NCBI GenBank assembly: GCA_036389075.1 | Contig: DASVQO010000045.1 | Span: 1-42,358 of the forward strand | Reading direction: 5' to 3' | Source: Chloroflexia bacterium | Lineage (GTDB): Bacteria > Chloroflexota > Chloroflexia > QHBQ01 > JADMIH01 | DNA length: 42,358 bases | Part shown: positions 18,822-42,358 of the stretch, one piece after another | Numbering within the stretch: the stretch's first letter is position 1 | Layout of the letters: every line of letters starts with the position of its first letter | Made by a program: the position numbers and the translations under genes | Notes under the pieces: generated by a model | Seen by the model: only the letters and a program-made list of their open reading frames with translations | The model's database searches: none | What the model was told of the DNA's origin: nothing

Positions 18822-21800
18822 TCAGCGGGCACCTCGTGCGGGTGTCTGGCAGTTGGGGAAGAAGGCGAGTGACACGAACTTGGAAGCCTGGCCTCGTGTC
18901 ACGAAGTTGGTGGGACGGAAGTAGCTGCCCGGGCACGGCTCGCCCGCGCCCCCACACGAGTAGCCGCCCACCACACCCCTGGTGGATAGCCGCTCTATGT
19001 ACTGCCAGAAGGTATCGGAGGTGGGTACGTCCGCGAAGCTCCGCTGGCCCGCAGGCACAGGCTCGTTGAACTCCGCCGCCAATGCCACAAATTTGGACAT
19101 CTGCCCCCTCGTGACAAGCGCCTCGGGCTGGAAGCAGGGCGCTCCCGTGGCGGGACACCTGTCCTGTGTGTTGTACCCGCTCACCACTCCCCTGGACGCA
19201 AGCCTCTGTATGAAGATATAGAAGGTGTGAGTGGCAGGTACGTCGGTGAAGGTCACTTCAGCGTGAGACTCGTCAAAGCCAGCCGCATTGCTCACGATCT
19301 TCGCCATCTGCCCCCGTGTGATGTTATCCCCCGGCCTGAAGCATGGCGCTCCCGTCTCCGGGCACCTGGAGGGCGAGGTGTAGCCTGAGAGTATCTCACG
19401 GCAGGCGAGGCATCGCACGTTCTCGTAGAAGTTGTTGGAGGGTGGTACGTCCGTGAACTCGATGGCGCATGGCGTCGCGGTGGCCCCTCCCGGCGGTGTA
19501 GCGGTCCGTGTGTATGTTGGCGTTGAGCTAGGGGGCGTGCCTGTTGCCGTCCGGGTAGCCGTGCCTGTGTGGGACGGTGTGGAGGTGCTAGTTGGCGTGG
19601 GGGTGGGAGCGGACACCAGGAAGCAAGGAGAGAACTCGGAGCTATTACCATCGGGGTCGATGGCCTTTGAGGTAATGTATTGCCCCACAGGCACCAGTTC
19701 GTCGAACGTCCTCGTGAAGCTCAAGCTATTGCCCGCGATGACTCCACCCAACTTGGTGGCCCCTTCGCCATGACCTGACGCGTCGCAAGTCACGCTACGG
19801 AAGATCTCGATATTGTACCCTGCCGGGTTACTATTACCCGTGCTGTCAAAGCTGCCTTCTACGGTCGTAGAGTTGCCAGTGGTAGTGACGCCGGTGAGTA
19901 TGGGGAAGTTTTGCAGGTTGTTGGGGCCTGTGTCTCCGTCTCCCGCATCGTTGGGTGTTACCCCATCGTTGCCCAGGTCTATCCCCAGGCCCGCGTTCGA
20001 GTGGGTGGTAGTGTCGAGGATCATGTTGCGGGTATCCTGGCCGCCGGTGAGAGACACCCCATCGCCCCCGTTGGAGTGAATGGAGTTGCTGTAGACCTTG
20101 TTACCGGTAGCGTAGTCGCCCGCGATAGTCACACCATCGCCGCCGTTATAGGCGATAGTATTGCCCTCCCCTTGCGAGGGGCCGCCAATCATGTGGTTGA
20201 TGGAGAACAGCGTGGGACTGCTCCCACCCTGTATGAGGACACCCGACTGTGAGTTGCCCAGGGCGCTGTTCCCCGACGCAGTTAGCCCAATAAGGTTACC
20301 GCGCACCGCGTTGTTCGACGTATCGTAGCTCAGGAGAACGCCGTGCCTGTTATTGCCGGAGATGACGTTAGGTGCCCCGGCACCACTTCCGCCTATCACG
20401 TTGCTACCGGCAATGCCCGTCACCGACGTCCCGGAAATCGTCACGCCATCCTGTGAGTTGCCCAGGTCCGCCGTGCCGGCCTTATCGGTGCCTATATAGT
20501 TCCCCTGCACCACGTTGCCGGGATAGGCACCGATGTAGATGCCGCTCGCATTGTTGCCGGAAATCAAGTTGCGTGCGCCCGGCGTCGTGCCCCCGATGGT
20601 GTTGGATGAACTGAGTGCAAACACCCCGTGCCTGCCATTCCCCAGGTCCTGGATGCCGCTGGAGTCGGTGCCGATGAAGTTCCCCTCGATCCTGGTGTTG
20701 AAGCCCCCGTTGTCGTCGTCACCCAGGCTGATACCATCACGGCCAAAGCGGCTGATGATAAGCCCACGCACCGTGCTACTGTGGGCGTGAACTCGCAGGC
20801 CATCTGTATTTGCGCCTGCCAGGCTGCCGTCCAGCAAGATGAGAGGCTGGGCATTGTTGCCGGTAGCCAGTGTGTTGGGGGCGCTCCCCGGCTGGGTATA
20901 GCCGTCTATCGTCAGTATGTCGCCTATGATAGGGAGCGGGCTTGCCGGAGTTATGGTATGCACACCGGTGCCCGCTATCGAAAAGCTGATACCGTCCGCA
21001 CCCCCGTTGCTGTTGGCATCGAGGAGGGCCTGGCGGAGGGAGTCGACACCGCTGTCGTTGGTATTAGCCACCTCGTAGTACACCCTGACGCAGTTGGAGA
21101 ACTCCGAGGTGCTGCCTGTGGGGTCAGTCATCGTGGCCGTGATGAATTGGCCTCCCAGTCCCGTCAGTGCGCGGTTATGGCTGAGGGTCAGGTTACCGCT
21201 CGAGTCGGTGAGCTGCAGGCCTGACTGGAAAAGGAAGGTCTGCCCCTCGCCATTACCTGACGCATCGCAGTAGTCGCTGGCGTAATACCTTACAGTGAAC
21301 AAAGTGTTTGGGGTGCCGTTGAAAGTGCCCTGGACAACAGTGTGGGAAGAATTGCTGGCGGCGAAAGTGAGCACTGGGAAGTTCTGCAGGTTGTTGGGAC
21401 CGGCGTCTGCGTCGAGTGCATCGTTGGCAGTCACGCCATTGCTTCCGAGCAGGTCTATTCCCTGGCCGCCGTTGGTGTGAATGGAATTTTGCAAGATTGC
21501 ATTGCGAACACTATCGTTAACAACGACAGCCACGCCGTCATCGCCGTTAAAGGCGATTACATTGCTCAGCGTGCCCGCGAAGGCGCTGTCGCCAACCGTG
21601 TTGCCTGAGGCGCTGGATATGTTGACACCCGTAAGGCTGTTCCCGAGGGCGGTGGTGCCGTCCCTCTTGGTGCCAACCAGGTTACCCTGCACCACATTGC
21701 CCAGGTTAGCTCCTGACGTTCCTGAGATGCTGATCCCGTAGGCGCCGTTGCCTGAGATGAGGTTGCGGGCCGCTGCCGTCGAACCCCCCACAGTGTTAGT

Positions 21801-22562
21801 CATGGAGCTAGAGATACTGATGCCCGAACCGGTGTTACCGAGGTCTGAGGTGCCGAAAGAATCGGTGCCGATGAAGTTCCCCTCTGTCCGGTTGCCGGAG
21901 CTTCCTGATAACTGTATCCCGTGCCGCGAAAAACGGTTGATGATAAGGCCCTTCACTGTGCTGTTGCCTGCCGTGATTGACAGACCGTCGGCGTTGGCCC
22001 CCGCCGCGCTTCCATTCAGCTCTATTAGGAGCGTGGCGCTGATAGCGCCGGGCGCAACCACTGTATTGGGGATGGAGCCAGGCTGAGTGTACCCATCGAT
22101 AGTTACGGGGCTGGTAATACCGGGAAGGGCGCTCTGCAGGTTTATGGTCTTGACGGCACCGGGCGTACCACCAATGTTGAAAGCTATGGTGTCCGCGCCC
22201 GCGTTGTTATTCGCATCTATAATGGCCTGGCGCAACGTGCCGGCTCCGCTGTCGGCGGTGGAGGTAACGGTAAAGGTTGTGGAGACAGACGGGGCCAGGA
22301 TGCCGTTCAACGTAGGTGCCTTCAACCTCGAACCGAGGATCCCCTGCCCGCTGTCCACTCGTCCCACCGCGCTGGAGAACCCGCTTGAACTTGATGGGAC
22401 CAGGGTCCTGGCTGTTGCGTGCTCGCCCAGCAAAAGGAGAGAGGATAGCAGCACCAAAACACCCGCCAGGATGAAAGCGGTATAGCGCCTGCGTCTGTGG
22501 TCAAGAGACTCTAATACCTTGTTCGAGACACCGTACTTTGCGTGCGCCCACTTTGCAGACAT
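18822..22562 (-). CDS. Large secreted parallel beta-helix protein with three C-terminal Cys-containing SLH-like repeats
   Basis: The start is set at ATG 22562, preceded by GAGGAG. The tracked start at 22649 adds 29 unlikely residues. A TM/signal segment (AFILAGVLVLLSSLLLLG) is present. Two modules of about 410 aa each open with T..DSG.G(T/S)LRQA..DAN.N.GAD.I.F.I and close with GPNNLQNFP(V/I)LT. A Pro/Thr linker follows, then 3x F.DVP....F(Y/W)..I..L..RG..(S/G)GY...C....PCFRP....TRGQ..K. Confidence 0.85.
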   Translation of the reverse strand: MSAKWAHAKYGVSNKVLESLDHRRRRYTAFILAGVLVLLSSLLLLGEHATARTLVPSSSSGFSSAVGRVDSGQGILGSRLKAPTLNGILAPSVSTTFTVTSTADSGAGTLRQAIIDANNNAGADTIAFNIGGTPGAVKTINLQSALPGITSPVTIDGYTQPGSIPNTVVAPGAISATLLIELNGSAAGANADGLSITAGNSTVKGLIINRFSRHGIQLSGSSGNRTEGNFIGTDSFGTSDLGNTGSGISISSSMTNTVGGSTAAARNLISGNGAYGISISGTSGANLGNVVQGNLVGTKRDGTTALGNSLTGVNISSASGNTVGDSAFAGTLSNVIAFNGDDGVAVVVNDSVRNAILQNSIHTNGGQGIDLLGSNGVTANDALDADAGPNNLQNFPVLTFAASNSSHTVVQGTFNGTPNTLFTVRYYASDYCDASGNGEGQTFLFQSGLQLTDSSGNLTLSHNRALTGLGGQFITATMTDPTGSTSEFSNCVRVYYEVANTNDSGVDSLRQALLDANSNGGADGISFSIAGTGVHTITPASPLPIIGDILTIDGYTQPGSAPNTLATGNNAQPLILLDGSLAGANTDGLRVHAHSSTVRGLIISRFGRDGISLGDDDNGGFNTRIEGNFIGTDSSGIQDLGNGRHGVFALSSSNTIGGTTPGARNLISGNNASGIYIGAYPGNVVQGNYIGTDKAGTADLGNSQDGVTISGTSVTGIAGSNVIGGSGAGAPNVISGNNRHGVLLSYDTSNNAVRGNLIGLTASGNSALGNSQSGVLIQGGSSPTLFSINHMIGGPSQGEGNTIAYNGGDGVTIAGDYATGNKVYSNSIHSNGGDGVSLTGGQDTRNMILDTTTHSNAGLGIDLGNDGVTPNDAGDGDTGPNNLQNFPILTGVTTTGNSTTVEGSFDSTGNSNPAGYNIEIFRSVTCDASGHGEGATKLGGVIAGNSLSFTRTFDELVPVGQYITSKAIDPDGNSSEFSPCFLVSAPTPTPTSTSTPSHTGTATRTATGTPPSSTPTYTRTATPPGGATATPCAIEFTDVPPSNNFYENVRCLACREILSGYTSPSRCPETGAPCFRPGDNITRGQMAKIVSNAAGFDESHAEVTFTDVPATHTFYIFIQRLASRGVVSGYNTQDRCPATGAPCFQPEALVTRGQMSKFVALAAEFNEPVPAGQRSFADVPTSDTFWQYIERLSTRGVVGGYSCGGAGEPCPGSYFRPTNFVTRGQASKFVSLAFFPNCQTPARGAR

Positions 22563-23063
22563 TGTAAACTCCTCAGCTATTCCGCGGGTCCCGGCTTGTG
22601 TGGTCACAAACAAGCTCTGCTGTTCAGAACGAATATATGGCGGAAGCAACCGTTATGAAAGTCCCTAATGTACGGGAACAGGGCAGCCCGGGCCAAGATC
22701 ACCTCGTCTATAGAGAAAAGGGATTCAGAGGCAACGCACAGAGCAATATGTCATGCAACGCCAAGACTGCCGGCTCTCTTAGTACCCGAAGATTGAGCAC
22801 GGTAGAGTCGCGTATGCGCGCCCAGGTAAAACCGATCGCACAAGGAGCAGATTCGGTAGCATCAAGTATAACCGACAAGCAGAGCTAATTTCAACAGCTA
22901 GATGGAGAAGCGTCTCGCAGGACCACATCAAAACCGGCAGGGGCTTCTGCTCCGGCAAAGGTTCAACCGGAATAGGGAGACGTCCTTAGGACATCCGCCC
23001 GAGAAGACGTACACTCCAGAGCCGCAACGTGATTGACGCCATAACTGAGTCCGACGCCAAACA

Positions 23064-23331: not shown

Positions 23332-25242
23332 TCACCCACCAGCCCCACCAGGAGGGACGCCAGAAGTGTCTCCGGTACCTGCTTCCGTAGGAGGGGTCCC
23401 AAGCCGCTGTCCACGCTGAGGCTCGGCTGCCTCTAATCGCTTGCGAACTTGCGCTACGTAGGCCGCACGTGCACCTACTTCCCTGTGCTTATACTCTTGT
23501 AAAAACGCCAGACCCGCTTCTAACAGCGGAACAGCCTGCGCCAAATGGCCCAACTTGGCGTGCTCGTCACCCAGGTTCCAGCTGGCGACGGCTTCTCCAG
23601 CTTGGTCGCCTATCTCCCCGGCAATTTCAAGCTGCTGTTCGTAATAGGGGATGGCTTGCCGCGAGTCCCCCAGATCGACGTAAACGTTTCCCAGATTGCC
23701 GAGGGCGACACTTTCTCCATGACGGTCCTTCAATTCGCGGGCAATTTCAAGCTGTTGTTCGTAAAAGGCGATAGCCTGATGGGAGTCATCAAGTGCCGCG
23801 TAAGCGTTGCCCAAATAGCCCAAGGCACTACTCTCCAGTTGACGGTCTCCGATTTCCTGGGCGATCTCCAACTGTTGCTCGTGATAGGAGCGGACTTGTT
23901 GGAGTTCGCCCATAGCAGCGGAGGCACGCCCCAGGGTGCCGAGGACCTTAGCTTCCCCAAGACGATCCCCGAATTCGCGGGTGACATCTAACAACTGCTC
24001 GTGGTAAGTGATAGTCCCGCGAGCATCTCCCAGGGCCATATGGGCGGTCCCCAGGATGCTGAGGGAGTTGCCTTCAGCGGCCCTGTTGCCGAAGTCCCGC
24101 GCTATCTTGAGGGCCTCGCTCGCATACTCTATGGCTTCTCGAACATCTCCCTGCAGAAGATGGGCACGGCTCATGTTGTCCAGCGCACTTCCTTCGCTAC
24201 GGCGGTCCGCAATGTCTCTCGCAATCTGGAGCCATTGCTCGTAGTAACCAATGGCTCGGGCGGTGTCACCTAGGGCCTCATAGGCCACTCCCAGGCTACC
24301 TAGGTCCTGGCCTTCAGCGCGGCGGTCTCCTATATTGCGGCTGACCTTCAGGGCGCGCTCATGGTAGGCAATGGCTCGCAGGAAATCTCCCAGGTCGGCG
24401 TAAGCGTTCCCAAGGTTTCCGAGGGCGTTACCTTCACCCCGCCGGTCCCCCAGTTCGCTCATGATAAGGAGCGCTCGTTCAGAGTGGGTAATTGCCTGCC
24501 AAGGGTCACCCAGTTCTGCGTAGGCCAGGGCGAGGTTCCCATGGGCGTTACCCTGGCCCCTGCGATCTCCCAATTCCTCTGCGATAGCAAGCGCCTGTTG
24601 GGAGCAAGTTATAGCCTGTTGAGGGTTTCGCAGGTCTGTATAGACCAGCCCCAGGTTGCCCAAGGCACCGGCTTCGCCGGCCCGATCCCCGATCTCACGT
24701 GCAATTACCAGGTGCTGCTCAAAACAGCTACGGGCTTGTTGAGGGTCGCCCATAGCCGTGTACGCCAGGCCGAGGTGGCCTAGTGCCACGCCTTCCCCAT
24801 GCCGGTTGCGGGCCGCACGAGCAAGCGCAAGGTGCTCCTGGTGATATTTGATAGCCCTATGTATATCGCCCAGCGCCAGGTAGGCGCTTCCCAGACTGCT
24901 CAGAAACCCACCCTCTGCCAAATTGCGCCCCAACCGCCGGGCGGCTGCCAGCGCGGCTTCGAGTTGGGAGATTCGCTCCTGCCGTTTGTCGTAGCGAACG
25001 TCCCCAATGTACGCAGTTCGGGTGGCATAGATGATCAACAAGTTATCTATGTCCGTATTCGTTCCAGGCGGTTGTGCAAGGAGCCAAGCCCAACCCATGT
25101 CTATCTGAGCGCGCTCCCCATCAAACTGCGCCAGTCCCGCGCGTTGTTCCGCGCCGCCCGCGCGGTATTGAACGTCCGCCTGAGCCACCACCTCAGCATA
25201 ATGCATCGCGACGCGACGGCCCGCCTCATAAGCACTCGGCAT
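23332..25242 (-). CDS. Tetratricopeptide-repeat protein (about 12 TPR units of 40 aa); sensor-arm half of a split STAND NTPase
   Basis: 636 aa. It has its own strong RBS (GAGGAGG, then 9 nt, then ATG). The N-terminus (HYAEVVAQADVQYRAGGAEQRAGLAQFDGERAQIDMGWAWLL) is the linker normally found directly after the NB-ARC winged helix. Reiterated units of the form GDRRGEG.ALGNLG.AY..LGD...AI.Y.EQ.L.IAREIGD follow. Confidence 0.85.
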   Translation of the reverse strand: MPSAYEAGRRVAMHYAEVVAQADVQYRAGGAEQRAGLAQFDGERAQIDMGWAWLLAQPPGTNTDIDNLLIIYATRTAYIGDVRYDKRQERISQLEAALAAARRLGRNLAEGGFLSSLGSAYLALGDIHRAIKYHQEHLALARAARNRHGEGVALGHLGLAYTAMGDPQQARSCFEQHLVIAREIGDRAGEAGALGNLGLVYTDLRNPQQAITCSQQALAIAEELGDRRGQGNAHGNLALAYAELGDPWQAITHSERALLIMSELGDRRGEGNALGNLGNAYADLGDFLRAIAYHERALKVSRNIGDRRAEGQDLGSLGVAYEALGDTARAIGYYEQWLQIARDIADRRSEGSALDNMSRAHLLQGDVREAIEYASEALKIARDFGNRAAEGNSLSILGTAHMALGDARGTITYHEQLLDVTREFGDRLGEAKVLGTLGRASAAMGELQQVRSYHEQQLEIAQEIGDRQLESSALGYLGNAYAALDDSHQAIAFYEQQLEIARELKDRHGESVALGNLGNVYVDLGDSRQAIPYYEQQLEIAGEIGDQAGEAVASWNLGDEHAKLGHLAQAVPLLEAGLAFLQEYKHREVGARAAYVAQVRKRLEAAEPQRGQRLGTPPTEAGTGDTSGVPPGGAGG

Positions 25243-25385: not shown

Positions 25386-26960
25386 TTAAGGAGTTAGCAA
25401 CGTGCGTGCGTGCGTAACGAGCAGCGCATGCAACCAGAAGCGCCCGGTACTAAGGGGTTCAAGCAGTCCGCGATTCACTAGTACGCGGATCGTTGGCTTA
25501 GGATCGGCAACCTGCCAAACGCTGCGGAGAGCGGCCTCATCAAACGTCGCGGGTTTTGGCGCGAGCGCGCCCAGATAGGCAAAAGAGTCTCGGGTTGCAG
25601 GGTCCAGCAGGTCGGTGCTCTTCTGCAACAGAGCGGCCACAGTTGGGAGAGTCTCCTTACTTATCTCCGCACGATCCGCCGGTGCCTGGGCCTCCAACAG
25701 ACGTGCCCCCTCACGAATCTCTTCCAGCAAGGTGGCAACGCTGAACCCCAGTTTGGCCTCACTTTGCAGCAAACGTCCCGCAACCTGGATCGCCAGAGGC
25801 AGTCCTTCGAGGTCTCGCACTAAGGATTTACTTGCATCGATATCTGTGGCAACGACACGAGGGGCCAAAACCCGTAGCAGATCCAATGCTGCTGTTTCGT
25901 TTAGAACGTCCAGCAAATAAATGTCATCGGGCGTGGGTGCAATTGCCTCGGCGACCACCGGCAGCCGTGTCGTGAGAAGCAAGGCGCAATCCCGACCCCC
26001 AACCTGAAAGGACACCGCATGCGCTGCTTCCCAGACATCATCAACAATAAGCAGCCGCCGCTGGTTGCGTAACAGGCCTGCCAACCGGACCGAGGCTTCT
26101 TCAATGGTGCTAGCGCTCTCCAACTCGGGGTGGCCCAATGCCCGGCCCCAGGCAGCTAGCTCGGCAAAGATAGCGGGCTGCTGGCCGAGGGAAGCCCACA
26201 GAACGCCGTCCGGGAACATCCGTGCAATGTCCAGATCGTGGGCCAGTGCAGCCGCGAGACTGGTCTTTCCAACTCCAGGCCACCCCCGCACCGTGGTTAG
26301 GACGTGGAGCGGCCCTGGCGCACTGGTGGCTACACTGATCCCCAGTCGGGCTTTCAACTCGCGCAGATCTTCATCTCGGCCAAGGAGTAGTGCGGGGATC
26401 GCGGGTGCGCTCCCCGGTGCTATAGCAACGGGGGGTACGGAAAGAGTTACATCTGCCCGCAATATCTGGTTGCCGTAGTCACCATGTACTTGTAGAAATA
26501 CCGGCGGGAAGTCCCCAGATTGCTCCGACCGATTCTCCCTACGTGATGGGGCTCGGCGTGCCGTATGGATAGAGGCGTCAGAGTGTTTACTCTCGTACTT
26601 GTCTGCTACGCGGCAGAGGTGCTCCCAATCGGAAAAGGTTACCTGGGCCTTATAAGCGTCCTTAAACTCACTCACCAACTTTCGAATTTGAGTGAGGAAG
26701 AACTGCTGTTGGGCCGTTCGCTCCGTTGCGTGGCCGGTAGGCGGATCGCTTTGGTCCAGCAGTAATCGAGCCAGACTCGCCAGGTAGCCGAGGGGAGGCG
26801 TAATCCGCCCACGCTCATAGTTGCTGACCGTGCTAAGAGTAACACCATAATGCTTAGCAGCAGCATCCCTGGTCTCAAATAGAGCGCGTCGTAACTTTAT
26901 AGCCAGGTCTGCTGGCTCCTCGCCTTCAGCAAATTCCAGAAGCTCCCACTTGTCGGGCAT
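25386..26960 (-). CDS. XRE-type HTH fused to an NB-ARC/STAND P-loop NTPase (no repeat arm)
   Basis: 524 aa. The N-terminal HTH reads AAKHYGVTLSTVSNYERGRITPP. Walker A is GWPGVGKTSLAAALAHD and Walker B is RRLLIVDDVW. LLLTTR and EGLPLAIQVAG are NB-ARC hallmark motifs. The ORF ends right after the winged-helix region. A GAGGTG RBS precedes the start. Confidence 0.85.
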   Translation of the reverse strand: MPDKWELLEFAEGEEPADLAIKLRRALFETRDAAAKHYGVTLSTVSNYERGRITPPLGYLASLARLLLDQSDPPTGHATERTAQQQFFLTQIRKLVSEFKDAYKAQVTFSDWEHLCRVADKYESKHSDASIHTARRAPSRRENRSEQSGDFPPVFLQVHGDYGNQILRADVTLSVPPVAIAPGSAPAIPALLLGRDEDLRELKARLGISVATSAPGPLHVLTTVRGWPGVGKTSLAAALAHDLDIARMFPDGVLWASLGQQPAIFAELAAWGRALGHPELESASTIEEASVRLAGLLRNQRRLLIVDDVWEAAHAVSFQVGGRDCALLLTTRLPVVAEAIAPTPDDIYLLDVLNETAALDLLRVLAPRVVATDIDASKSLVRDLEGLPLAIQVAGRLLQSEAKLGFSVATLLEEIREGARLLEAQAPADRAEISKETLPTVAALLQKSTDLLDPATRDSFAYLGALAPKPATFDEAALRSVWQVADPKPTIRVLVNRGLLEPLSTGRFWLHALLVTHARTLLTP

Positions 26961-27016
26961 CCGTACACCTCATTCAGCCTCGCCGGATCGCTCGTTGCCC
27001 GTGTGATCGCTGACTA

Positions 27017-27040
27017 CTCCTTGCGCAAGGTTGCGCAAGG
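27017..27040. promoter_or_regulatory. Tandem palindromic boxes CCTTGCGCAAGG / TTGCGCAAGG (candidate HTH operator)
   Basis: ccttgcgcaaggttgcgcaaggtt contains the self-complementary octamer TTGCGCAA twice at a 10-bp period. It lies 57-80 bp upstream of the HTH-NB-ARC start, in the divergent intergenic region. Confidence 0.45.
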
Positions 27041-27181
27041 TTTCAGCACCCAGTAGTAGGATAGCAGTGCATGCAGGTGAATGGAGATCAGACGTACAGG
27101 AGTTGATCCGAGGTCCCACGAACTTTCACCACCTGCAAGCAACCTGAACCCGTCTCAAGTAGTCATTGTGGATCATTCACT

Positions 27182-27231
27182 CCGGAATGCGCTGAGCTGC
27201 AGATCATGCAGACCGGAATGCACTGAGCCGC
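27182..27231. promoter_or_regulatory. Two 20-bp direct repeats (18/20 identical) spaced 30 bp start to start
   Basis: ccggaatgcgctgagctgca lies at 27182-27201 and ccggaatgcactgagccgca at 27212-27231. They sit about 180-230 bp upstream of the candidate precursor start. Confidence 0.4.
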
Positions 27232-27413
27232 AAATCTAGCTACCGCACACGGGGCAGGCGGCCAGCAGGCTATTAACATCACACCCTGTTCACCTTAACT
27301 TGACACTAAGTGTATCACAGACACTTGTCGGTATCTCGGTGCGCAAGATATGGGCGACAGGTCAGTACAGGGCAACAACACCCTTAAGCTGTTCGAAACA
27401 AAGGAGAAACATC

Positions 27414-27632
27414 GTGAAAGTAGACCTTACACAACTCAAAGAGACGCCTCGTGGCGCGGGCAACGCGCTATGGACCGGTGCGCCGGAACGTACTGCGGCG
27501 ACTAACATGGACCAATACCTCTGTGGCTGCCTCAATAGCTATGGGGTGCCCCAGATCTGGTCGGGCCGCAGCCCAGAGCATGCAATAGCGTACGGCCATG
27601 GTAGTGCCACGTTCGCGATGCTTGGCCGTTAG
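27414..27632 (+). CDS. Candidate RiPP precursor peptide (72 aa)
   Basis: AAGGAG (27401-27406) is followed after 7 nt by GTG 27414. The product is MKVDLTQLKETPRGAGNALWTGAPERTAATNMDQYLCGCLNSYGVPQIWSGRSPEHAIAYGHGSATFAMLGR. It lies directly upstream of, and on the same strand as, the cyclodehydratase. The track shows a longer 110-aa version from 27300 that lacks an RBS. Confidence 0.45.
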   Translation: MKVDLTQLKETPRGAGNALWTGAPERTAATNMDQYLCGCLNSYGVPQIWSGRSPEHAIAYGHGSATFAMLGR

Positions 27633-27705
27633 GTTTAGATGCCGCCTGGATGTAGTGGAGCACCCATCCGCTGCGCTACCCAGGCGGCAGCAATAGAATG
27701 AGTCG

Positions 27706-27738
27706 GGTTCTGCTGGGACTTGCGTGCTCAGCAGAACC
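27706..27738 (+). promoter_or_regulatory. Stem-loop between precursor and cyclodehydratase (10-bp stem), plus a second one at 27640-27688
   Basis: ggttctgctg (27706-27715) pairs with cagcagaacc (27729-27738). tgccgcctgg (27640-27649) pairs with ccaggcggca (27679-27688). Neither has a U-tract. Confidence 0.5.
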
Positions 27739-27758
27739 CCTCGAAAAAGGATGGTGCT

Positions 27759-30251
27759 ATGAGTAACAATCAACAAATCAATGAGGTTCTCGATCTCACC
27801 TACTCTTCGGTCCCCGATCTTGAGGTTATCCCCATCGAAGAGGGGAAATGGCTTTGCCACTCTGCTACCGGCAGCGTTCGGATCGCGGGGCCATCCGCCC
27901 AGCCGATGGTGGAGGAGATCATGCCATTATTGAAGAACGGGTGTTTGTGGTCGACTCTACTGGCGCAGTTCCCCGGTCTGGAACCGGCCGAGTTGCGGCA
28001 GACGCTGAATGGCCTGGTGGCCAGTGGAGTCCTCAGGTGCACCGCTGGCTCGCCTCCCGACCCGGCGCCGACTCTGGCGCCTCTCCTGGCTCTCCTTGGG
28101 GGTCTCGATGTGCCAGCCGACGTTGCCGCATCCCGTCTCGCAAACGCCCGAATCGTCATCATTGGACTGGAAGGGATAGGGGCCCATCTTGCCCTGCTGC
28201 TCGCGCGGTATGGCTTGCGGCGCTTCGTTCTAGTCGATCCCTATCCGTGCCAGCCCGGCAACCTGCCGTTGCTGCCAACCGGAGGACTGGAGGCGCTCGG
28301 CCAACCTCGGCAAACATTGGTCGCCCAGGCCCTGCACGATACAAGCCCTGGCGGGAAGGACCTGGATATTACTCTCGGTCCGCCGAACCTTTCTCCAGAA
28401 TATGTGGAGCAGGTGGTCGCCGGTTGCGATTGCGTGGTCAGTTGTTTCGAACGTGGCTTTTCATCGGTCCATCACTGGGTAAATCGTGCCAGTCTGCGAG
28501 CTGGGGTACCTGCTGTGTATGCTGAAGCGCTGGGCCACCAGGGCTGGGCAGGGCCACTTGTCCTTCCCTACCGGACGTCCTGTTATACGTGCTACCGGAT
28601 GCGCGCTGTAGCTTGCGCCCCCGACATTACGGCTGCCCTAGCGTATGAGCAGCATACGGATGGGCAAAAACTGCCTCGATTGCACGCCCGCCCTGTCCTT
28701 CCCAGCCTGTTGCCTCAACTCGCCGGTCTGCTTGCTACGTCGGTCTTGCAAGTGGTACTGGGCCTTGACCCGCCAGCCCTTGCTGGACGGGTAATGGAGT
28801 GTCAGGCACTCACGCTTGTGGCAACGGTACATCCGGTGTTACAACAGCCCGACTGTCCGGATTGTAGAGGTAGCGGCCCAAGAGGCCCTGCTCACCCCAA
28901 CCTGGCAGAGTTACTGGCGGGAGGCGATTCAGCCGTCAACGCGCTAGAGATTGCTCCTGAATTGATAAGTCCCGAAACAGGTATCATCCGGGAAGTCAGT
29001 TGGTACGAAAAGGATGTGGCGGAACCGCATTTACCGTATATCTGCCGGGTGACGTTTGCGAACCACCATTTTAGATTTGAGATTCCTGCGGAGCATCTGA
29101 CCAGCGGGGGGAAGGGGCTTACTCGGGACGTTGCGCTTGCAAGTGGGCTGGGAGAGGCTATAGAGCGGTACGCAGCCGACTGGGTGGATCCAGAGGTCAT
29201 TATTTATGCCCGGCGTGCTGACCTCGATGGCCCCAGCATGAACCCTGTAGATCTCGTGCTCTACGCTCCTGAGCAGTACGCAACGGTGCCTTATCACCCA
29301 TACGAGGAAAGCAGCATCCTGGGCTGGGTCCGCGGGCGCTCGCTCGTGACCGGAGAGTCTGTGTATATGCCAGCGCTGGCGGTTTTCCTGGGCTACCAGG
29401 TCCAGCGTCCCGAGGAGCACCTGTTTCTGGTCACCTCCAATGGCGTCGCCGCCGGGGGTAGCCTCGTTCGTGCCATCCTGGCAGGCACATATGAGGTAAT
29501 CGAACGGGATGCCTTGATGATTACCTGGTTCGCCACCCTACCCGCCCGGCGCGTGGATCCGTCCACCCACCCGGATACCGAGGTTCGCGCCTTATGCCGC
29601 GCTTACCAACGGCGAGGGGTAGAAATAGGCCTGTGGCGGCTCCCTACCGATCAGCCTTGCGCCGTCTTCCTCGCCCTGGGGCTGCACCACGGATCCAAAT
29701 CGGAGCCTGCGGTAATCGCGGGTGCTGGCGCCGACCTGGCGCCGGCAGCGGCCGCGCGCAAAGCCATCCTGGAGGTGGGCCAGATCCGGCCATCATACCG
29801 GCGGAGCCTACGCCGTCCCGACGTTCGCGAACTCATGGAGGCCCTCGTCAAAAATCCGCAAAGTGTCACCACAATGCACGACCATGGGCTGCTGTATTGT
29901 AGTCCTGACATGCGCCACGCCCTCGGTTTTCTGCTGGACCAAGAGCCTGACGTGCAGGAGTGGGGGCCACTTACCGCCGGTGATCCCACTATGCAGTTGG
30001 AGCAATTGGTGAACCATTTCCGCACGACGCAGAGAGAGTTGCTCTATTATAACCTGACCCCGCCCGATCTTGCCCGGTTGGGGCTAGCAGCCGCACGGGT
30101 CATCATACCTGGTTTTCAGCCGGTTACCTTCGGTGCCGAAGAGCCGCGTCGGGGTGGAGCACGCCTCTATGAACTGCCACACCAACTCGGTCTAGCCGCG
30201 TCCCCGCTGATGCCGGAAGATCTAAATCCCTACCCTCACCCATTTGACTAA
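27759..30251 (+). CDS. Fused RRE / E1(ThiF)-like / YcaO cyclodehydratase (TOMM C-D fusion)
   Basis: I prefer the ATG at 27759 (AAGGA RBS) over the tracked TTG at 27720, which lies inside a hairpin. The region of about 27807-28043 is PqqD-like RRE (beta-strands, then ..LEPAELRQTLNGLVASGVL). The region of about 28137-28875 is Rossmann-like, with IVIIGLEGIGAHLALLLARYG and the CxxC pairs CYTCY and CPDC. From about 28962 the YcaO domain begins (SGGKGLTRDVALASGLGEAIERYAA). The C-terminus is proline-rich, ..LNPYPHPFD. Confidence 0.88.
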   Translation: MSNNQQINEVLDLTYSSVPDLEVIPIEEGKWLCHSATGSVRIAGPSAQPMVEEIMPLLKNGCLWSTLLAQFPGLEPAELRQTLNGLVASGVLRCTAGSPPDPAPTLAPLLALLGGLDVPADVAASRLANARIVIIGLEGIGAHLALLLARYGLRRFVLVDPYPCQPGNLPLLPTGGLEALGQPRQTLVAQALHDTSPGGKDLDITLGPPNLSPEYVEQVVAGCDCVVSCFERGFSSVHHWVNRASLRAGVPAVYAEALGHQGWAGPLVLPYRTSCYTCYRMRAVACAPDITAALAYEQHTDGQKLPRLHARPVLPSLLPQLAGLLATSVLQVVLGLDPPALAGRVMECQALTLVATVHPVLQQPDCPDCRGSGPRGPAHPNLAELLAGGDSAVNALEIAPELISPETGIIREVSWYEKDVAEPHLPYICRVTFANHHFRFEIPAEHLTSGGKGLTRDVALASGLGEAIERYAADWVDPEVIIYARRADLDGPSMNPVDLVLYAPEQYATVPYHPYEESSILGWVRGRSLVTGESVYMPALAVFLGYQVQRPEEHLFLVTSNGVAAGGSLVRAILAGTYEVIERDALMITWFATLPARRVDPSTHPDTEVRALCRAYQRRGVEIGLWRLPTDQPCAVFLALGLHHGSKSEPAVIAGAGADLAPAAAARKAILEVGQIRPSYRRSLRRPDVRELMEALVKNPQSVTTMHDHGLLYCSPDMRHALGFLLDQEPDVQEWGPLTAGDPTMQLEQLVNHFRTTQRELLYYNLTPPDLARLGLAAARVIIPGFQPVTFGAEEPRRGGARLYELPHQLGLAASPLMPEDLNPYPHPFD

Positions 30252-30263
30252 CCAGGAGGTACC

Positions 30264-31046
30264 ATGTTTCGCGAAATGTTTCCTATTGCGTGGGCCTTCC
30301 ACCGCAATACCTCAATTCCACCCTATCGACTAGGCGGTCCGGGCGGGCTGTTCCCTAAGGAGCCGGTCCCGCCGTTCAAGGAATACAGCACAGCCGAACT
30401 GGTACCGTTGCCCAGCCCCGGCGAACTGAAGACCTCCCTCGGCGCGGCGATACAGGAACGGCTTTCCTGCCGCCAGTTCGAGGATCACCCTCTGCCTCTC
30501 ACCACTCTCGCCACCCTGCTCCACGCCAGCTATGGGATCCAAGATCAAGTCCTCTTGGATGAGCACGAAGTGCTCAGCCGCCCGGTGCCCTCCGGCGGTG
30601 GTCTGTACCCGCTGGAAGTCTATGTCCTCGTCCGCAAGGTTCAAGGTCTCGATCCAGGAATCTACCACTATGCGGTCATAGATCACACGCTGGAGAGGCT
30701 CGATTTGGCACCTGTGCCGGCGCCACGGCTGACCGAGTTATTCTTGGGGCAGTCTTATCCAGAGGATGCGGCGCTTGTAGTGGTGATAACAGCGGTCCTG
30801 GGGCGTTCGCTAAAAAAGTATGCCGACAGAGGGTACCGCTTGGTGCTACTGGAAGCCGGTCATCTTGTCCAGAACCTGAACCTTGTAGCCACAGCCCTTG
30901 GCTGGGGAAGTGTGAACCTGGGCGGCTTTTTGGACGATGAGTTGGGCGCGGTTCTCGACCTGGATCGCGAGGTGGAGGTACCAGTCTATGCGACTGCGGT
31001 CGGCAAACCTCGAGGGACGAGCGCTGATGTCCTACGGCAAGCCTGA
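30264..31046 (+). CDS. SagB-type FMN-dependent dehydrogenase (nitroreductase fold)
   Basis: 260 aa. It starts 12 nt after the cyclodehydratase stop, with a GGAGG RBS. Motifs: IQERLSCRQF (RxSxRxF-type), PSGGGLYPLEVYV, and LLEAGHLVQNLNLVATALGWGS. Confidence 0.85.
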   Translation: MFREMFPIAWAFHRNTSIPPYRLGGPGGLFPKEPVPPFKEYSTAELVPLPSPGELKTSLGAAIQERLSCRQFEDHPLPLTTLATLLHASYGIQDQVLLDEHEVLSRPVPSGGGLYPLEVYVLVRKVQGLDPGIYHYAVIDHTLERLDLAPVPAPRLTELFLGQSYPEDAALVVVITAVLGRSLKKYADRGYRLVLLEAGHLVQNLNLVATALGWGSVNLGGFLDDELGAVLDLDREVEVPVYATAVGKPRGTSADVLRQA

Positions 31047-31449: not shown

Positions 31450-32160
31450 TTACCTATCGCTCCCGCCGCGCTGGCTACGCTCTGCTGAGGAGTCGCCGGG
31501 CCTGCATGCGTCCGCAGGGTGCTTTTGGGATTGGAAGGTAGGTTTCCGGCGCTTGGCAAGTTGCTCACCTTTAGTCATCCATCGGCAGTTCTCAGGCGTG
31601 TAATCCCCATCAGGGTCTCTTCTGCCCAAGCCGTATTCCGGCCCCGGCCTGGGTCGCATGTCCTCTAGGAACGCCTGGAAGCTCTCTCTCCAGCGCTCGC
31701 ATACCTTGATACCCCTGCCTCCATAGTAGGCGTAACCACCCGCTGTGGGTGTGCAGCAGCGCCGCTTCATTGACATCCACGCTGTATGCTCCGGCAAATT
31801 GGCAGTAGGCACACCGTACTTGTATGTCTCTGGGCGGCGTCTCGTGGTTCTGAGCTTGCGAGCGGCAGCATTGGCCTCGCGCTTAGCCTTCCTTCTTCGT
31901 TCCTCATAAACCTGGCCTTTAGGTGACCTACGCCACGCTGTCACTACTCTATTGAAGCGTTCCTTCTGTTCCGCCGACATGTTGGACCGCCTGCACTTGT
32001 TGTATTCTGCCAGGCATCGCTTGCACCTATGGTCTAGGCCGTCGCGGCTCCGTGCGTTACGGTGGAACTCTACCCGTGACTTGGGCACGCCGCACCTACT
32101 GCAGACTTTCATTTCTTGTAGAGAGGGACTGAGTCCATTAGGTTGTTCGTCCATGGGCAC
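31450..32160 (-). CDS. Phage-like Zn-ribbon / DNA-binding protein (family often annotated as HNH- or homing-endonuclease-associated)
   Basis: 236 aa. It has a CxxC...CxxC ribbon ([16 protein letters not shown]...[11 protein letters not shown]), a basic linker, then [26 protein letters not shown]...[26 protein letters not shown] recognise this pattern from phage and mobile-element ORFs, from memory. It starts with GTG at 32160 or ATG at 32154. Confidence 0.55.
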
Positions 32161-32874: not shown

Positions 32875-34353
32875 TTATCTTGACCCTACCTGAGACTGCG
32901 ACATGTAGACTATCTTCGCCGTCTGGCCGCGTGTGATGCTCACGGCGGGTCTGAAGTAGGGCAAATTCTGGGGCCCCACGCACGGTTCCTCCGCCCGGCT
33001 GCCGCACGCGTAGCCACTGATGATCCCACGCTCGGACATGCGCGCTGTGTGCTCGAAGAAGGCGTGGTTCGCGGGCACGTCCTCGAAGTGCTGCTCGCCT
33101 ACCCCTTCGGTGAAGTTGAAGGCCAACCCTGCGATCTTGGAGAGTTGCCCCCGGCTGACTGGTAGCCCCGGCCTGAAGTACGGCAGGTTGTCCGGTGCCA
33201 TGCACGGCTCGTCGGGTAGCTGGCCGCAAGGGTAGCCGCCGATGTTGCTTCGGTCCGAGAGCCTAGAGATCGGCTCGTAGAAGTTGCTACCCTCCGCCAC
33301 GTCCTGGAACTTGCGGCCCTCTACCGGCTCCGTGTACCCGGCGGCCATGGCCACTATCTTGGCTGTTTGGCCCCGCGTGACGTCGCTGTAGGGCCCGAAG
33401 CAGGGCACGTGGTTCGCAGCGGGGCAGGGCGGGGACGAGTTGTATCCTGAGATGACGTTTTGCTCGCTGAGGCTCAGCACCGGCTCATAGAAGTAATCAC
33501 CGGGACACACGTCCCTGTAGCGCTCACCGGGGCACCTAGGTGGTTCGGGGGTGGGTGTGGTGCAGGCGGGCTGGGAGAAGGTGAGCTTCAGCCCGAAACT
33601 CAGGCTGTTCTGCGTGTAGCAGGAGAACTGGCTAGCCTGCTCGCTGTTGCGCTGCACTCCTACCGTGGTGGTCTCACCGCCGCCTTCCACCGTGCCGTAG
33701 AGAACCTCAAAATCAGATCTGTTTTCGAAGAACTTGATCTCGAAGTTGACGCGGCCGGCACAGGTGCCGAGGTCGTATATGCACGCTCGCCACTCGATAT
33801 TGAACACCCTGGTAGGAGCACTGCCAGTTACAGAGGTCAATATGCCAAGGTCGGCGCCTGCTGCGGTGCGCATGTCGAGATCGTCCCAGTGGGGGAAGAT
33901 TGTGTACTCGTAGGCACTGGTAGGCAAGCACTCATTAAGCATGAAGTCGGTGTCGTTCTGGAGGCTTAGGAAGCCGTTAGACGAGACGTAGGCCTGGGTG
34001 AAGGTGCGGTCGTAGAGGCGGAGGGGGAAGGGGAAATAGAGTAGGCGGTTGCAGTCATCACACTGAGAACCAGGTATCAGGGTGGTGGCTGGCTCCAGAG
34101 TGTCCGTGGACGCTGTTATGACGTAGTCACTCAACTCCCCGCACGCAGGACCAGTCCCCTGGGAGACAGGCTTTAGTGCCGGGGGCGTTCTGGGTGCGCC
34201 CTTGGCAGAGTCGTTATATAGAACTTTCGCGCTTACCATTCGCGGTTGGGTCTCTACTCCAGCGTTAGCAGGGAGTATCTGTAGCAGGCATAGCGTGAGT
34301 GCAGCAATCGCAGAGATATACGTGTAAGTGCGCTTGGCAGAGGTCCTGTGCAT
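32875..34353 (-). CDS. Secreted surface protein with three C-terminal Cys-containing SLH-like repeats
   Basis: Signal peptide (ISAIAALTLCLLQILPANAG). The N-terminal domain of about 270 aa is of unknown function. It is followed by three repeats of the same F.DV....F(Y/F)....(L/M)S....I.GY.C.....PC....(Y)FRP...(V/I)(T/S)RGQ..KI type seen at the end of the 18822-22562 protein. Confidence 0.8.
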   Translation of the reverse strand: MHRTSAKRTYTYISAIAALTLCLLQILPANAGVETQPRMVSAKVLYNDSAKGAPRTPPALKPVSQGTGPACGELSDYVITASTDTLEPATTLIPGSQCDDCNRLLYFPFPLRLYDRTFTQAYVSSNGFLSLQNDTDFMLNECLPTSAYEYTIFPHWDDLDMRTAAGADLGILTSVTGSAPTRVFNIEWRACIYDLGTCAGRVNFEIKFFENRSDFEVLYGTVEGGGETTTVGVQRNSEQASQFSCYTQNSLSFGLKLTFSQPACTTPTPEPPRCPGERYRDVCPGDYFYEPVLSLSEQNVISGYNSSPPCPAANHVPCFGPYSDVTRGQTAKIVAMAAGYTEPVEGRKFQDVAEGSNFYEPISRLSDRSNIGGYPCGQLPDEPCMAPDNLPYFRPGLPVSRGQLSKIAGLAFNFTEGVGEQHFEDVPANHAFFEHTARMSERGIISGYACGSRAEEPCVGPQNLPYFRPAVSITRGQTAKIVYMSQSQVGSR

Positions 34354-34540: not shown

Positions 34541-35611
34541 CTAAACTTCTACCAACCACCGCTCTATGTTGTCGACGATCCTCTTGCCTGCTTTGCCGTC
34601 CCACAGTTCAGGAACGGATCCAATATTCTTCAACGGCTCTCGGCTTGCTATCACGATCTGTTCGTGCATCGGTGGCACTAGGCGGTTGGTGCCTTCAGTG
34701 ATAGTAATTGGGCGTTCCGTGTTGTGGCGAACTGTTACGCAAGGCACTCTCAACGCTGTAGTCTCTTCTTGTACACCACCGGAGTCAGTTATCACCACTC
34801 TCGCTTTGGCCAACAGGCCCAAGAACTCGATATATCCTAGCGGCTCAACGAGCCGCACTCCCAGCAAGTTATTCCAGAGCCCACCGGACTGGGCCAACGT
34901 ACGCGGATGGATGGGGAAAATGAGCGGTAACTCAGATCCAATTGTATTTAAGGCTTCCACCAGCTCCAGCGCAACGTGATGGTCATCGACGTTTGACGGC
35001 CTATGTAACGTTACAACCCCATAATTACTAGGTTGTAGATCATAGCTCCGCCATGGCTGCCTAGCTAGGGCCTTTGGTAGATGAGTATGTACCGAGTCAA
35101 TCATAGAATTGCCGACGAAATAGATCTTCTCGGAAGCAATACCTTCGCGGCGTAGGTTCTCTTTCCCGCTAGGTTCGGTAGTGAACAGCAACTCAGATAA
35201 GTGATCAGTCAACACCCTGTTCGTCTCTTCTGGCATCGACCGATCGTATGAGCGCAATCCTGCCTCGACATGCGCCACGTGAATGTTCAACTTCGCGGCT
35301 GCGAGGGCACACGCCAGGGTAGAGTTCACATCTCCTGCCACAACTACTAATCGGGGAGAATACTCTAGGCATATTGTCTCAAAAGACGTCAATATACGGG
35401 CCGTCTGTTGAGCGTGCGAGCCTGATCCGACTCCTAGGTAAACGTCAGGCTCGGGCATCTCTAGCTCATCGAAGAAGACGGCAGACATCTGCTTATCGTA
35501 GTGCTGGCCGGTATGAACGAAGACCTGTCTCATACCACGTCGTCTTGCTTCGAGTATAACCGGTGCCATCTTCATGAAGTTCGGGCGCGCCCCGACCACG
35601 GTACAGATCAT
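34541..35611 (-). CDS. wecB: UDP-N-acetylglucosamine 2-epimerase (non-hydrolysing)
   Basis: 356 aa. MICTVVGARPNFMKMAPV..., HTGQHYD, DVNSTLA, VAHVEAGLRSYD and ITDSGGVQEET are the canonical epimerase_2 motifs. There is a 4-nt overlap with the upstream glycosyltransferase. Confidence 0.9.
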   Translation of the reverse strand: MICTVVGARPNFMKMAPVILEARRRGMRQVFVHTGQHYDKQMSAVFFDELEMPEPDVYLGVGSGSHAQQTARILTSFETICLEYSPRLVVVAGDVNSTLACALAAAKLNIHVAHVEAGLRSYDRSMPEETNRVLTDHLSELLFTTEPSGKENLRREGIASEKIYFVGNSMIDSVHTHLPKALARQPWRSYDLQPSNYGVVTLHRPSNVDDHHVALELVEALNTIGSELPLIFPIHPRTLAQSGGLWNNLLGVRLVEPLGYIEFLGLLAKARVVITDSGGVQEETTALRVPCVTVRHNTERPITITEGTNRLVPPMHEQIVIASREPLKNIGSVPELWDGKAGKRIVDNIERWLVEV

Positions 35612-36861: not shown

Positions 36862-37071
36862 GTCTGAGAAGCTGACAAGAGGACAACAAGCAAGCCGGCT
36901 TGCTTACGAGGCACGCCCTCACAACAGATGTTCATCACCATCTGTGCGTGATTCACGTTTCTATGGTGTCGTGAAGATAGTTTTGGATGATCACCGCGCT
37001 CAGATTACGCTTGACGAAGGCTTCTTCATTGCTGATGGCTATCGCAGTGAAGAGTCGGCAACTGGTCGTAC

Positions 37072-37902: not shown

Positions 37903-37935
37903 TCCAGTAGCTACTTTTCCGCAAATGGGCGAGGA

Positions 37936-40388: not shown

Positions 40389-40390
40389 AG

Positions 40391-41782: not shown

Positions 41783-42358
41783 GGCCTATTTCCTGTAAGC
41801 ACCGTGTCGTACACGCAACATACCTGGCTTATTACCCGGCCTGCGCTGTACCTGGTCTGAACATGACTCCTGAACCTCCCGCCGTACTGCTTGCGCAATT
41901 CTGCAGACATGAGCAAGCGCAGCAGCGCATCGGCTAACGCATCTGGTGAACTGGGTGGCACCAGTATACCTGTCCTACCTGAGTCCAGTACCTCCCTACA
42001 TTGTCCTACCTCAGTGGCCACTGACGCCAATCCTGCCATACCGTACTCTATCAGTGCCAGGGGGAGCCCTTCGGAGATTGAACTCAGAACTCCGATGTCG
42101 CACTTTTCTAATATCGCAAAAACGTCAGATTGTTCTCCCATCAACGTGATATTTCGAGCCAGATCATGTTGTACTATCTCCTGCTCAACACGCTCCACAT
42201 AACTTTTAACGCTGGTCGCGCCCACGAGCAGAAGATGCACATCTGGTACTTGCTCTCTAACCTTAGCAAGGGCATTAATGAGAGTAAGATGATCTTTCTG
42301 CGGGCGGAGGTTAGCCACACATACAATCCGCGTTCCGGGCTGTCCAAGCACAACAGTT
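41779..42358 (-). CDS. Glycosyltransferase family 4, C-terminal part (5' end beyond the window edge)
   Basis: The frame stays open to base 42358. RIVCVANLRPQKDHLTLINAL...SSISEGLPLALIEYGMAGLASVATEVGQCREVLDSGRTGILVPP is a GT-B C-domain that begins mid-protein. Confidence 0.8.
   Translation of the reverse strand, partial: TVVLGQPGTRIVCVANLRPQKDHLTLINALAKVREQVPDVHLLLVGATSVKSYVERVEQEIVQHDLARNITLMGEQSDVFAILEKCDIGVLSSISEGLPLALIEYGMAGLASVATEVGQCREVLDSGRTGILVPPSSPDALADALLRLLMSAELRKQYGGRFRSHVQTRYSAGRVISQVCCVYDTVLTGNRP

Follow-up and report, generated by a model that had tools for sequence, protein, structure and literature searches.

The locus and its short gene

The window analyzed here is a stretch of 42,358 nucleotides from contig DASVQO010000045.1 of a Chloroflexia bacterium (assembly GCA_036389075.1). 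On its forward strand it carries a 72-codon open reading frame (ORF), a gene 126 nt further downstream for a fused YcaO cyclodehydratase, and a gene for a SagB-type dehydrogenase, with two genes of probable regulatory function on the opposite strand (Table 1). From the evidence below we consider it likely that the ORF encodes the substrate peptide of a three-gene cassette for a linear azole peptide (LAP, a type of thiazole/oxazole-modified microcin, TOMM), and that this peptide is a core-reduced, low-azole form. It is not a classical Cys-dense precursor.

The initial annotation of this DNA had described an AAGGAG ribosome-binding site, a 7-nt spacer, a GTG start, and a 72-residue product, and re-translation gives the same peptide string. 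Its residue counts were each off by one: the two cysteines reported as C36 and C38 are C37 and C39, and 33 rather than 34 residues follow the CGC. The GTG is taken as the true start because the relatives all begin with Met at the aligned position. That Met lies 6 to 8 nt past AAAGGAG or AAGGAG, as in all seven subclade loci examined, or past CAGGAG at unchanged spacing in the locus designated L172. A longer, 110-residue reading from a TTG at 27300 was rejected, since the relatives begin at the aligned Met, which is the sole start right after the conserved ribosome-binding site, and since the in-frame segment upstream in L001 is only four codons long. The 72-residue peptide has no match in Pfam or NCBIfam, finds only itself in a word-indexed protein search, and is predicted to be disordered when modeled alone (predicted local distance difference test, pLDDT, 48).

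Conservation beside orthologous enzymes

Homologues of the peptide were reached through the enzyme. Relatives of the fusion at 40 to 72% identity were collected together with the DNA around them, and profile-guided scans of genome and metagenome contigs with the enzyme alignment added 160 further loci; a single-sequence scan of genome contigs with the enzyme gave no matches, whereas the alignment-based scans did succeed. In every orthologous locus with sufficient upstream DNA (53 to 73% enzyme identity), a small ORF lies directly upstream of the fusion on the same strand. Homologous small ORFs were found in this way at L001, L002, L003, L005/L006, L091, L115, and L173/L174, the first three encoding MDLIIKELKGTPTSTPRPAYCMCAIGTVGGTVGHRLAFAALGR (L001), MDIHVTGLGHTPGNARLSPKLCACANRYGALPSFADGSGELGMVRGHNTAAFARLGR (L002), and MNLHITELDTLLKHVRLAPRSGVQESNALSNMSPQFCACANRYGVGPAAVAGNAEQRGGRDHSRATFARLGR (L003). 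The candidate precursor put forward in the initial annotation is thus conserved in synteny beside orthologous YcaO fusions.

A leave-one-out profile provides an independent view of the same gene. Built from eight homologous peptides of other loci, with the window peptide excluded, and compared with all 1145 six-frame segments of the window, it matches this ORF only (E = 2.9e-11, 39.6 bits), the runner-up segment reaching E = 0.66. The suggestion that the substrate might be encoded elsewhere, or that the ORF might not be a gene, finds no support here, as no other ORF in the window matches either precursor profile. The subclade profile also recovered further members from 5.8 billion clustered proteins, and an exhaustive search of 1.84 billion representatives returned 14 proteins at E <= 0.001, all of 69 to 73 residues, 6 of them already in the query alignment and none from outside the subclade.

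Alignment A5 brings together 17 distinct sequences, including those of L001 and L002, and gives the consensus MxLxITELxNTLxxVR ... P..C.CANRYG ... A.FA.LGR. C39 and G71 are invariant, and M1, C37, N41, A68, and L70 are at least 90% conserved. The segments between the N-terminal motif, the C-x-C-(A)-N core, and the F-A-x-L-G-R end drift freely, so that the peptides range from 43 to 73 residues while both ends remain in frame; such length variation is expected only of a translated sequence. As such, the 72-codon ORF is, on comparative sequence evidence, a real and conserved gene. The presence of C37 in 16 of the 17 sequences, together with the invariance of C39, favors the low-heterocycle product that had been one of the readings first offered. 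The L173 precursor P0052 has PCANRYG and so lacks the first Cys of the C-x-C pair, which leaves the second as the only one shared by all. At that locus the gene caller of the assembly had missed the start of the fusion (3258-4154, 73% identical to the window fusion) and annotated an antisense 140-residue ORF at 3552-3974 in its place.

Table 1. Features of the cassette and its surroundings, with positions in the window
Feature	Position	Strand	Description	Basis
Precursor peptide gene	27414..27632	+	72 aa plus stop; GTG start at 27414, TAG stop at 27630-27632	translation, leave-one-out profile match, synteny
Ribosome-binding site	27401..27406	+	AAGGAG, 7 nt (AAACATC, 27407-27413) ahead of GTG	sequence
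Leader-like motif	27414..27461	+	residues 1-16, MKVDLTQLKETPRGAG; putative recognition sequence for the RiPP recognition element (RRE)	alignment A5
Single core unit	27522..27545	+	residues 37-44, CGCLNSYG; two thiazoles predicted, at C37 and C39	alignment A5
Variable linker	27546..27608	+	residues 45-65, Pro/Gly/Ala-rich	alignment A5
Conserved C-terminal tail	27609..27629	+	residues 66-72, TFAMLGR (F-A-x-L-G-R, stop)	alignment A5
Fused cyclodehydratase	27759..30251	+	830 aa	Pfam/NCBIfam, AlphaFold2, Foldseek
SagB-type flavin mononucleotide (FMN) dehydrogenase	30264..31046	+	260 aa	TIGR03605 151 bits, PF00881 96 bits
Helix-turn-helix (HTH) + NB-ARC (STAND) protein	25386..26960	-	524 aa, divergent	Pfam
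Tetratricopeptide repeat (TPR) protein	23332..25242	-	636 aa, downstream of the NB-ARC gene	Pfam TPR_12 322 bits
Promoter-like block, putative	27289..27335	+	about 100 nt upstream of the start	upstream alignment
Intergenic RNA hairpin 1	27640..27689	+	no U-tract	folding
Intergenic RNA hairpin 2	27700..27742	+	near-perfect GC-rich stem, ends 17 nt before the enzyme start	folding

Architecture of the peptide

Three parts of the peptide can be distinguished by their conservation. At the N-terminus, where the subclade consensus reads MxLxITELxNTLxxVR, the window peptide reads KVDLTQLKET, and by analogy with characterized leader peptides we infer that residues 1 to 16 would bind the RRE of the enzyme. 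The core consensus is C-x-C-A-N-R-Y-G, and the linker that follows varies in length among the relatives, being much shorter in the 43-residue L001 peptide. Of the two deviations seen in the window core, the Leu in place of Ala is also found in P0046, and the Ser in place of Arg is matched only by the shorter CMCAIG of L001.

The tail is the part that links the subclade to other peptides. Of 138 loci, 80 have an upstream ORF with the pattern F-x-x-[LF]-G, followed by 0 to 3 residues and a stop, compared with 4 of 12998 background segments, and the window tail (F67-A-M-L70-G71-R72-stop) conforms to it. Most tails have 0 to 3 residues after the conserved Gly and that of L009 has 7; the last residue varies among R, G, Y, E, Q, D, H, and S. 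Read from these sequences, the F-A-x-L-G-R tail of the subclade is the local form of a family-wide (R)F-G-G-L-G-G tail.

A wider precursor family

More distant fusions, at 27 to 50% identity, have a much larger precursor family encoded directly upstream on the same strand. It extends over Chloroflexota, Actinomycetota, Acidobacteriota, Bacteroidota, Pseudomonadota, Deinococcota, and others. Its members have a helical leader, L-E-x-R-[IV]-x-E-L-E-x-x-L, a second leader element, [ST]-x-E-E-[IL]-x-A-Y-x-K-V, and a hypervariable core that is mostly Cys-rich (often CGINEC ... ECTCGPCN), before the tail described above. The initial annotation had allowed for a different conserved Cys/Ser/Thr-rich ORF in homologues. 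Cys-rich ORFs do occupy the same position in distant homologues, and they are assigned to the same gene family because they share the same kind of leader and the C-terminal F-x-x-L-G tail.

Two loci appear, from their sequences, to bridge the window subclade and this wider family. In L092 (54% enzyme identity; ORF 1870-2448) the full family leader is combined with twelve tandem TCACANRxxx units and the end RFGGLGG. In L094 (53% enzyme identity; ORF 548-976) the leader resembles that of the subclade, MRIVELDNPLKSLRL, and is combined with eleven SCANRAAxA units and the end ...PFVLLGD. In a neighbor-joining tree of the enzymes the single-unit clade is monophyletic and sister to the repeat-core loci L092 and L094, and both clades nest within the Cys-rich family. 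Given this placement, the window peptide is most readily understood as derived, its core reduced to one C-x-C-A-N-R-x-G unit. Cores with few Cys are also found elsewhere in the wider family, in the Kribbella types and in L100, L101, and L127, so a sparse core recurs in several lineages and is not an oddity of one locus.

Some members depart from the common layout in ways of their own. In Kribbella and related Actinomycetota (L032, L039, L041, L050, L051, and L053) the leader is kept, the tail reads RFA[DN]LG[GE], and a single Cys lies in a conserved RCAM[LMV]GIFE motif; this clade is another independent low-Cys lineage of the family. Precursors with 8 to 12 short tandem units stand beside relatives of the enzyme at L092, L094, L064, L070, L072, L073, L075, and L080, with units such as TCACANRPGA and SCANRAAMA or, in Rhodobacteraceae, GACMPAA, GACFPAA, or TACAPTACAQ, the latter with acidic ends. 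Their repeats suggest multi-core precursors, from which numerous copies of a small azole peptide could be released. Loci of Paracoccus, Rhodobacteraceae, and related alphaproteobacteria have the precursor gene about 2 to 2.5 kb upstream of the fusion, and an ORF of about 640 to 665 residues sits between the two, forming one cluster over 13 loci (L148, 448-2445; also L058, L063, L066, L077, and L084).

Typical members of the wider family match no model in Pfam or NCBIfam, and literature searches by motif strings and by taxon with YcaO found no paper describing the family. What is new here is therefore an uncurated precursor family for which no describing paper was found, its conserved C-terminal tail, and the single-unit core of the subclade. 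One enzyme scaffold in this family serves three kinds of core: Cys-dense, tandem-repeat, and single-unit.

The modifying enzymes

The fusion scores 308 bits against TIGR03604 (cutoff 219), 237 against PF02624, 83 against PF00899, and 47 bits against TIGR03882. Its domains are an RRE-like winged helix at about residues 14 to 95, an E1/ThiF-like domain at about 124 to 367, and a YcaO domain at about 451 to 829 with a proline-rich C-terminus, NPYPHPFD. No variation is seen across 19 homologues in the ATP/Mg motifs of the YcaO domain (GEAxERY, SNGxAxG, and ExERD), in the four zinc cysteines of the E1 fold, or in the proline-rich C-terminus. An AlphaFold2 model of the fusion (pLDDT 86.9; predicted template modeling score, pTM, 0.82) has the three-domain layout of LynD and TruD, and its residues 14 to 95 form four strands, three helices, and one strand, which is the RRE layout. 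The best full-length Foldseek matches are LynD (4v1t/u/v; E = 4e-40, template modeling score, TM, 0.63 to 0.72), TruD, and 7u58.

The E1-like domain calls for separate comment. By sequence it is nearest to MccB (E = 4e-11) and ThiF (8e-11), with TruD at only 3e-4. Its nucleotide loop reads G-L-E-G-x-G (GLEGIG in the window) instead of GxGGxG, with the Glu invariant in the family, and NLPLL stands where NLxRQ would be expected, so that the Arg is lost.

The SagB gene is syntenic and its product 59 to 70% identical in L001 to L005 and L094; identity is 53% in L007 and 48% over a partial match in L091. The features of the LAP/TOMM class are found together at this locus, namely a YcaO protein, an RRE with an E1-like partner, SagB, and an adjacent precursor with a leader and a Cys core for which azoles are predicted, although that core is atypically sparse for the class.

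Proposed function and alternatives

It can be hypothesized from these parts how the cassette would operate. The N-terminal motif would dock on the winged-helix RRE of the fusion, by analogy with the PatE leader on LynD, and the YcaO domain, driven by ATP, would cyclodehydrate C39 with the carbonyl of G38 and C37 with that of L36. SagB would then oxidize the two thiazolines to thiazoles, with an expected mass change of -40 Da. The intergenic hairpins may raise the ratio of precursor to enzyme transcript, and the adjacent HTH/NB-ARC/TPR proteins may regulate the operon. The C-terminal tail would be a second conserved element, with docking, processing, and export as candidate roles. Leader removal and export would have to be provided by genes outside the cassette, as no protease or transporter lies nearby.

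Several observations weigh against the assignment of the ORF as a core-reduced LAP substrate. Beyond the conserved syntenic gene the case proceeds by inference, with modification, translation, and binding all predicted. The window core, CGCLNSYG, differs at two positions from CxCANRYG. The ratio dN/dS relative to L172, the nearest peptide with DNA available, is 0.58 at a dS of about 0.94, and at such near saturation this is not strong evidence of purifying selection by itself. No protease, transporter, or immunity gene is found in the window. Ties to the wider family are also faint at the level of the whole peptide: a hidden Markov model (HMM) of 60 wider-family members, which matches L092 at 2.4e-11, has no match to the window ORF at E <= 10; an hhalign comparison of subclade and wider family aligns only 15 leader columns (3 to 17; P = 0.0055, probability 6.7%); and the second leader element, [ST]xEE[IL]xAYxKV, which L092 has, is absent from all 17 subclade peptides. 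The exhaustive subclade-profile search likewise returned no wider-family member among its 1.84 billion representatives. Given the whole-length profile failure and the short hhalign match, membership in the wider family is argued from synteny, the tail, the enzyme tree, and the bridging sequences.

A refinement of this scheme would give the tail a defined place. Active E1s take up the GG tails of ThiS, MoaD, and ubiquitin, and it could be speculated that the peptide is anchored at two points, the leader bound to the RRE and the tail threaded into a vestigial acceptor-tail channel of the degenerate E1/ThiF-like domain. The core would then be looped toward the YcaO domain, which would explain how it can shrink to one C-x-C or grow to a dozen repeats and still be processed. 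We regard this bipartite hold as rather unlikely; no description of bipartite recognition in azole-forming cyclodehydratases was found in the literature searched. When enzyme alignment columns were compared with tail presence, the best columns were scattered, in a comparison that has five tail-less enzymes from three clades and is underpowered and confounded by phylogeny.

The initial annotation had also considered a follower peptide, and one half of that idea stands, in that the last seven residues form a conserved tail; the other half is at odds with an N-terminal leader-like motif that is conserved as well. Taken in full, it would mean that the F-A-x-L-G-R tail is the main recognition element for the cyclodehydratase and that the N-terminal motif serves otherwise. 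A mid-peptide core with a long C-terminal extension suits such a layout, as does a tail conserved both in the subclade and across many phyla at the frequency given above, but the N-terminal motif is likewise conserved in the subclade and the wider family, and the enzyme has an N-terminal RRE-like domain within a LynD/TruD architecture, which binds N-terminal leaders. Moreover, L097, L100/L015, L101/L102/L105, and the Rhodobacteraceae repeat precursors with acidic ends keep the leader and have no tail, which argues against the tail as the primary recognition element and against a bottromycin-style, follower-only arrangement. Bottromycin-type YcaOs, for their part, have no partner of the E1-like kind and stand alone (Cox et al. 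2015, PMC4603692). Recognition chiefly through the tail is accordingly improbable.

The tail also invites the thought of chemistry at its own end. Wider-family tails end in ...LGG, as in ThiS, MoaD, and ubiquitin, and the E1-like domain is closer in sequence to MccB and ThiF than to TruD; an active E1/ThiF-like domain might thus adenylate the tail carboxylate, as in MccB, IndF, and ThiF, and produce, besides azoles, a modified C-terminus or a macrocycle. ThiF-like enzymes acting on a threaded C-terminus are known among peptides that are made by the ribosome and modified after translation (RiPPs), whereas the E1-like part of LAP systems is portrayed as a non-catalytic, peptide-binding scaffold (PMC12596934). 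The window enzyme has G-L-E-G-x-G and not GxGGxG in its nucleotide loop, the Arg of NLxRQ is replaced (NLPLL), an N-terminal Arg motif of the RYxRQ type was not seen when the fusion sequence was read by eye without alignment, and the variable number and identity of residues after the tail Gly misfit a reaction at a fixed carboxylate. Adenylation of the tail by an active E1 was rejected as the principal function, with the nucleotide loop and Arg finger degenerate, and we consider such chemistry very improbable.

Lastly, that the ORF is no substrate at all, being an accessory, regulatory, or immunity protein or an untranslated chance ORF, accords with the empty Pfam and NCBIfam searches, the two Cys only, the dN/dS value, and a translation that is predicted and not direct, but is hardly credible for an in-frame ORF with a ribosome-binding site at a fixed position in all orthologous loci, with an invariant Cys inside a conserved C-A-N motif that the sister clade repeats in tandem in its obvious precursors, with a predicted disordered chain and no fold, with no alternative precursor found by the precursor profiles in the 42-kb window, and with a profile E value that a chance ORF would not reach.

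The reading as a core-reduced LAP substrate has some practical consequences. It assigns the substrate gene of a cluster even though the peptide fails the heuristic of genome-mining tools for a C-terminal core dense in Cys, Ser, and Thr. Single-unit peptides of 43 to 73 residues with one or two target Cys would be minimal, tractable substrates for studies of leader versus tail recognition, and the small bis-thiazole peptide predicted as the product has a chemistry simple enough for quick characterization.

Flanking DNA and neighboring genes

Within the putative promoter block, TTCACC is followed after 18 nt by TATCAC, and a TTGACA lies at 27300-27305. The block is common to the aligned upstream DNA of the window, L001, L002, and L003, and may serve as a promoter; a scan of 26900-27800 for simple sigma-70 consensus promoters and for terminators found no sites. 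The 126-nt spacer between the precursor and fusion genes has a folding energy of -63.2 kcal/mol (z = -5.28), a stability that none of 200 shuffled sequences reached. A spacer of 109 to 144 nt bearing two strong hairpins precedes the enzyme gene in all seven subclade loci. Stem-loops after structural genes tune transcript ratios in lantibiotic operons. The window hairpins were not called as intrinsic terminators, lacking U-tracts, and Rfam has no match anywhere in the window.

The HTH/NB-ARC protein is 65% identical to its counterpart in L001 and 59% in L002, with its position kept, and its N-terminal part also occurs in L003 and L091. It is a probable cluster-situated regulator, and the TPR protein, which has a syntenic homologue in L001 and L002, is probably its sensor half. 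As both genes are syntenic too, the loci are orthologous beyond the cassette itself. This regulator is split into two ORFs (HTH with NB-ARC, and TPR) in the window and likewise in L001 and L002. L001 to L005 also have a convergent, single-chain HTH/NB-ARC/TPR regulator of 839 to 921 residues downstream of the SagB gene, and two STAND-type regulators (signal transduction ATPases with numerous domains) per cassette appear to be the ancestral layout of the subclade. The window has no such downstream regulator after SagB. A 236-residue ORF on the reverse strand at 31450-32160, with no Pfam match, corresponds to a phage-type HNH endonuclease (phrog_3377, E = 2e-34), and insertion of a mobile element or replacement is one possibility for the missing gene.

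Further out, two proteins with S-layer homology (SLH) domains are encoded on either side of the cluster, at 18822-22649 and 32875-34353, both on the reverse strand, and one of them is a 1275-residue right-handed beta-helix protein. Their presence fits a Chloroflexia-like cell envelope. The region 35001-42358 has a G+C content of 45 to 53%, against 56 to 69% elsewhere in the window. It has genes for a UDP-GlcNAc 2-epimerase and for glycosyltransferases and may be a cell-envelope polysaccharide island gained by horizontal transfer.

Relation to known systems

The closest architectural parallels are the cyanobactin cyclodehydratases LynD and TruD (PDB 4v1t, 4v1u, 4v1v, and 4bs9), which have the same fused RRE, E1-like, and YcaO domains. 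The PatE leader binds LynD through LAELSEEAL, and a likeness to PatE extends to the precursors, in which a short helical leader of acidic and aliphatic residues (here LExRIxELExxL and MxLxITEL) precedes a variable core. Multi-core precursors also occur in the relatives L092 and L094. Nevertheless, lacking PatA and PatG, the cassette does not qualify as a cyanobactin system. It has neither these proteases nor a macrocyclase, its core is not flanked by cyanobactin recognition sequences, and it differs further in its distinct F-x-x-L-G tail, in an enzyme identity of about 21%, and in a separate SagB.

The third-best structural match, 7u58, is MusD, the muscoride YcaO with ATP-dependent peptidase activity and likewise a fused heterocyclase. 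This YcaO reportedly also cuts a peptide bond. A MusD-like peptidase activity would be one conceivable trimming route for a cassette with no protease of its own.

Bottromycin precursors resemble the window peptide in that a core is followed by a long C-terminal extension of which part is conserved, but they have no N-terminal leader, whereas the window peptide has a leader-like motif. Bottromycin YcaOs are stand-alone proteins (PMC4603692), whereas the YcaO of the window is fused to RRE and E1-like domains. With both a leader and an RRE present, the cassette is not a follower system of the bottromycin type. Trifolitoxin offers a loose likeness only, in its few azoles. The 'mobilisin'-type clusters (Cox, Doroghazi & Mitchell 2015, PMC4603692) show an anomaly of the sort pointed out in the initial annotation, but this likeness is descriptive only, and the taxa differ; Chloroflexi, Kribbella, and Paracoccus are absent from that survey. 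None of its named families matches, propionisin having a discrete cyclodehydratase, transporters, and CaaX proteases.

Microcin B17, plantazolicin, streptolysin S, and heterocycloanthracin share with the window the set of YcaO, E1-like protein, and SagB beside a short, leader-bearing precursor. Classical LAPs have a core at the C-terminus with Cys, Ser, and Thr densely placed, whereas the window peptide has one mid-peptide C-x-C unit and a 33-residue extension; its cassette differs from those systems in having no transporter, protease, or immunity genes, and no curated precursor family resembles the peptide. On the strength of its domain and gene content, the cassette is nonetheless predicted to work like a LAP/TOMM system with a fused cyclodehydratase of the LynD type.

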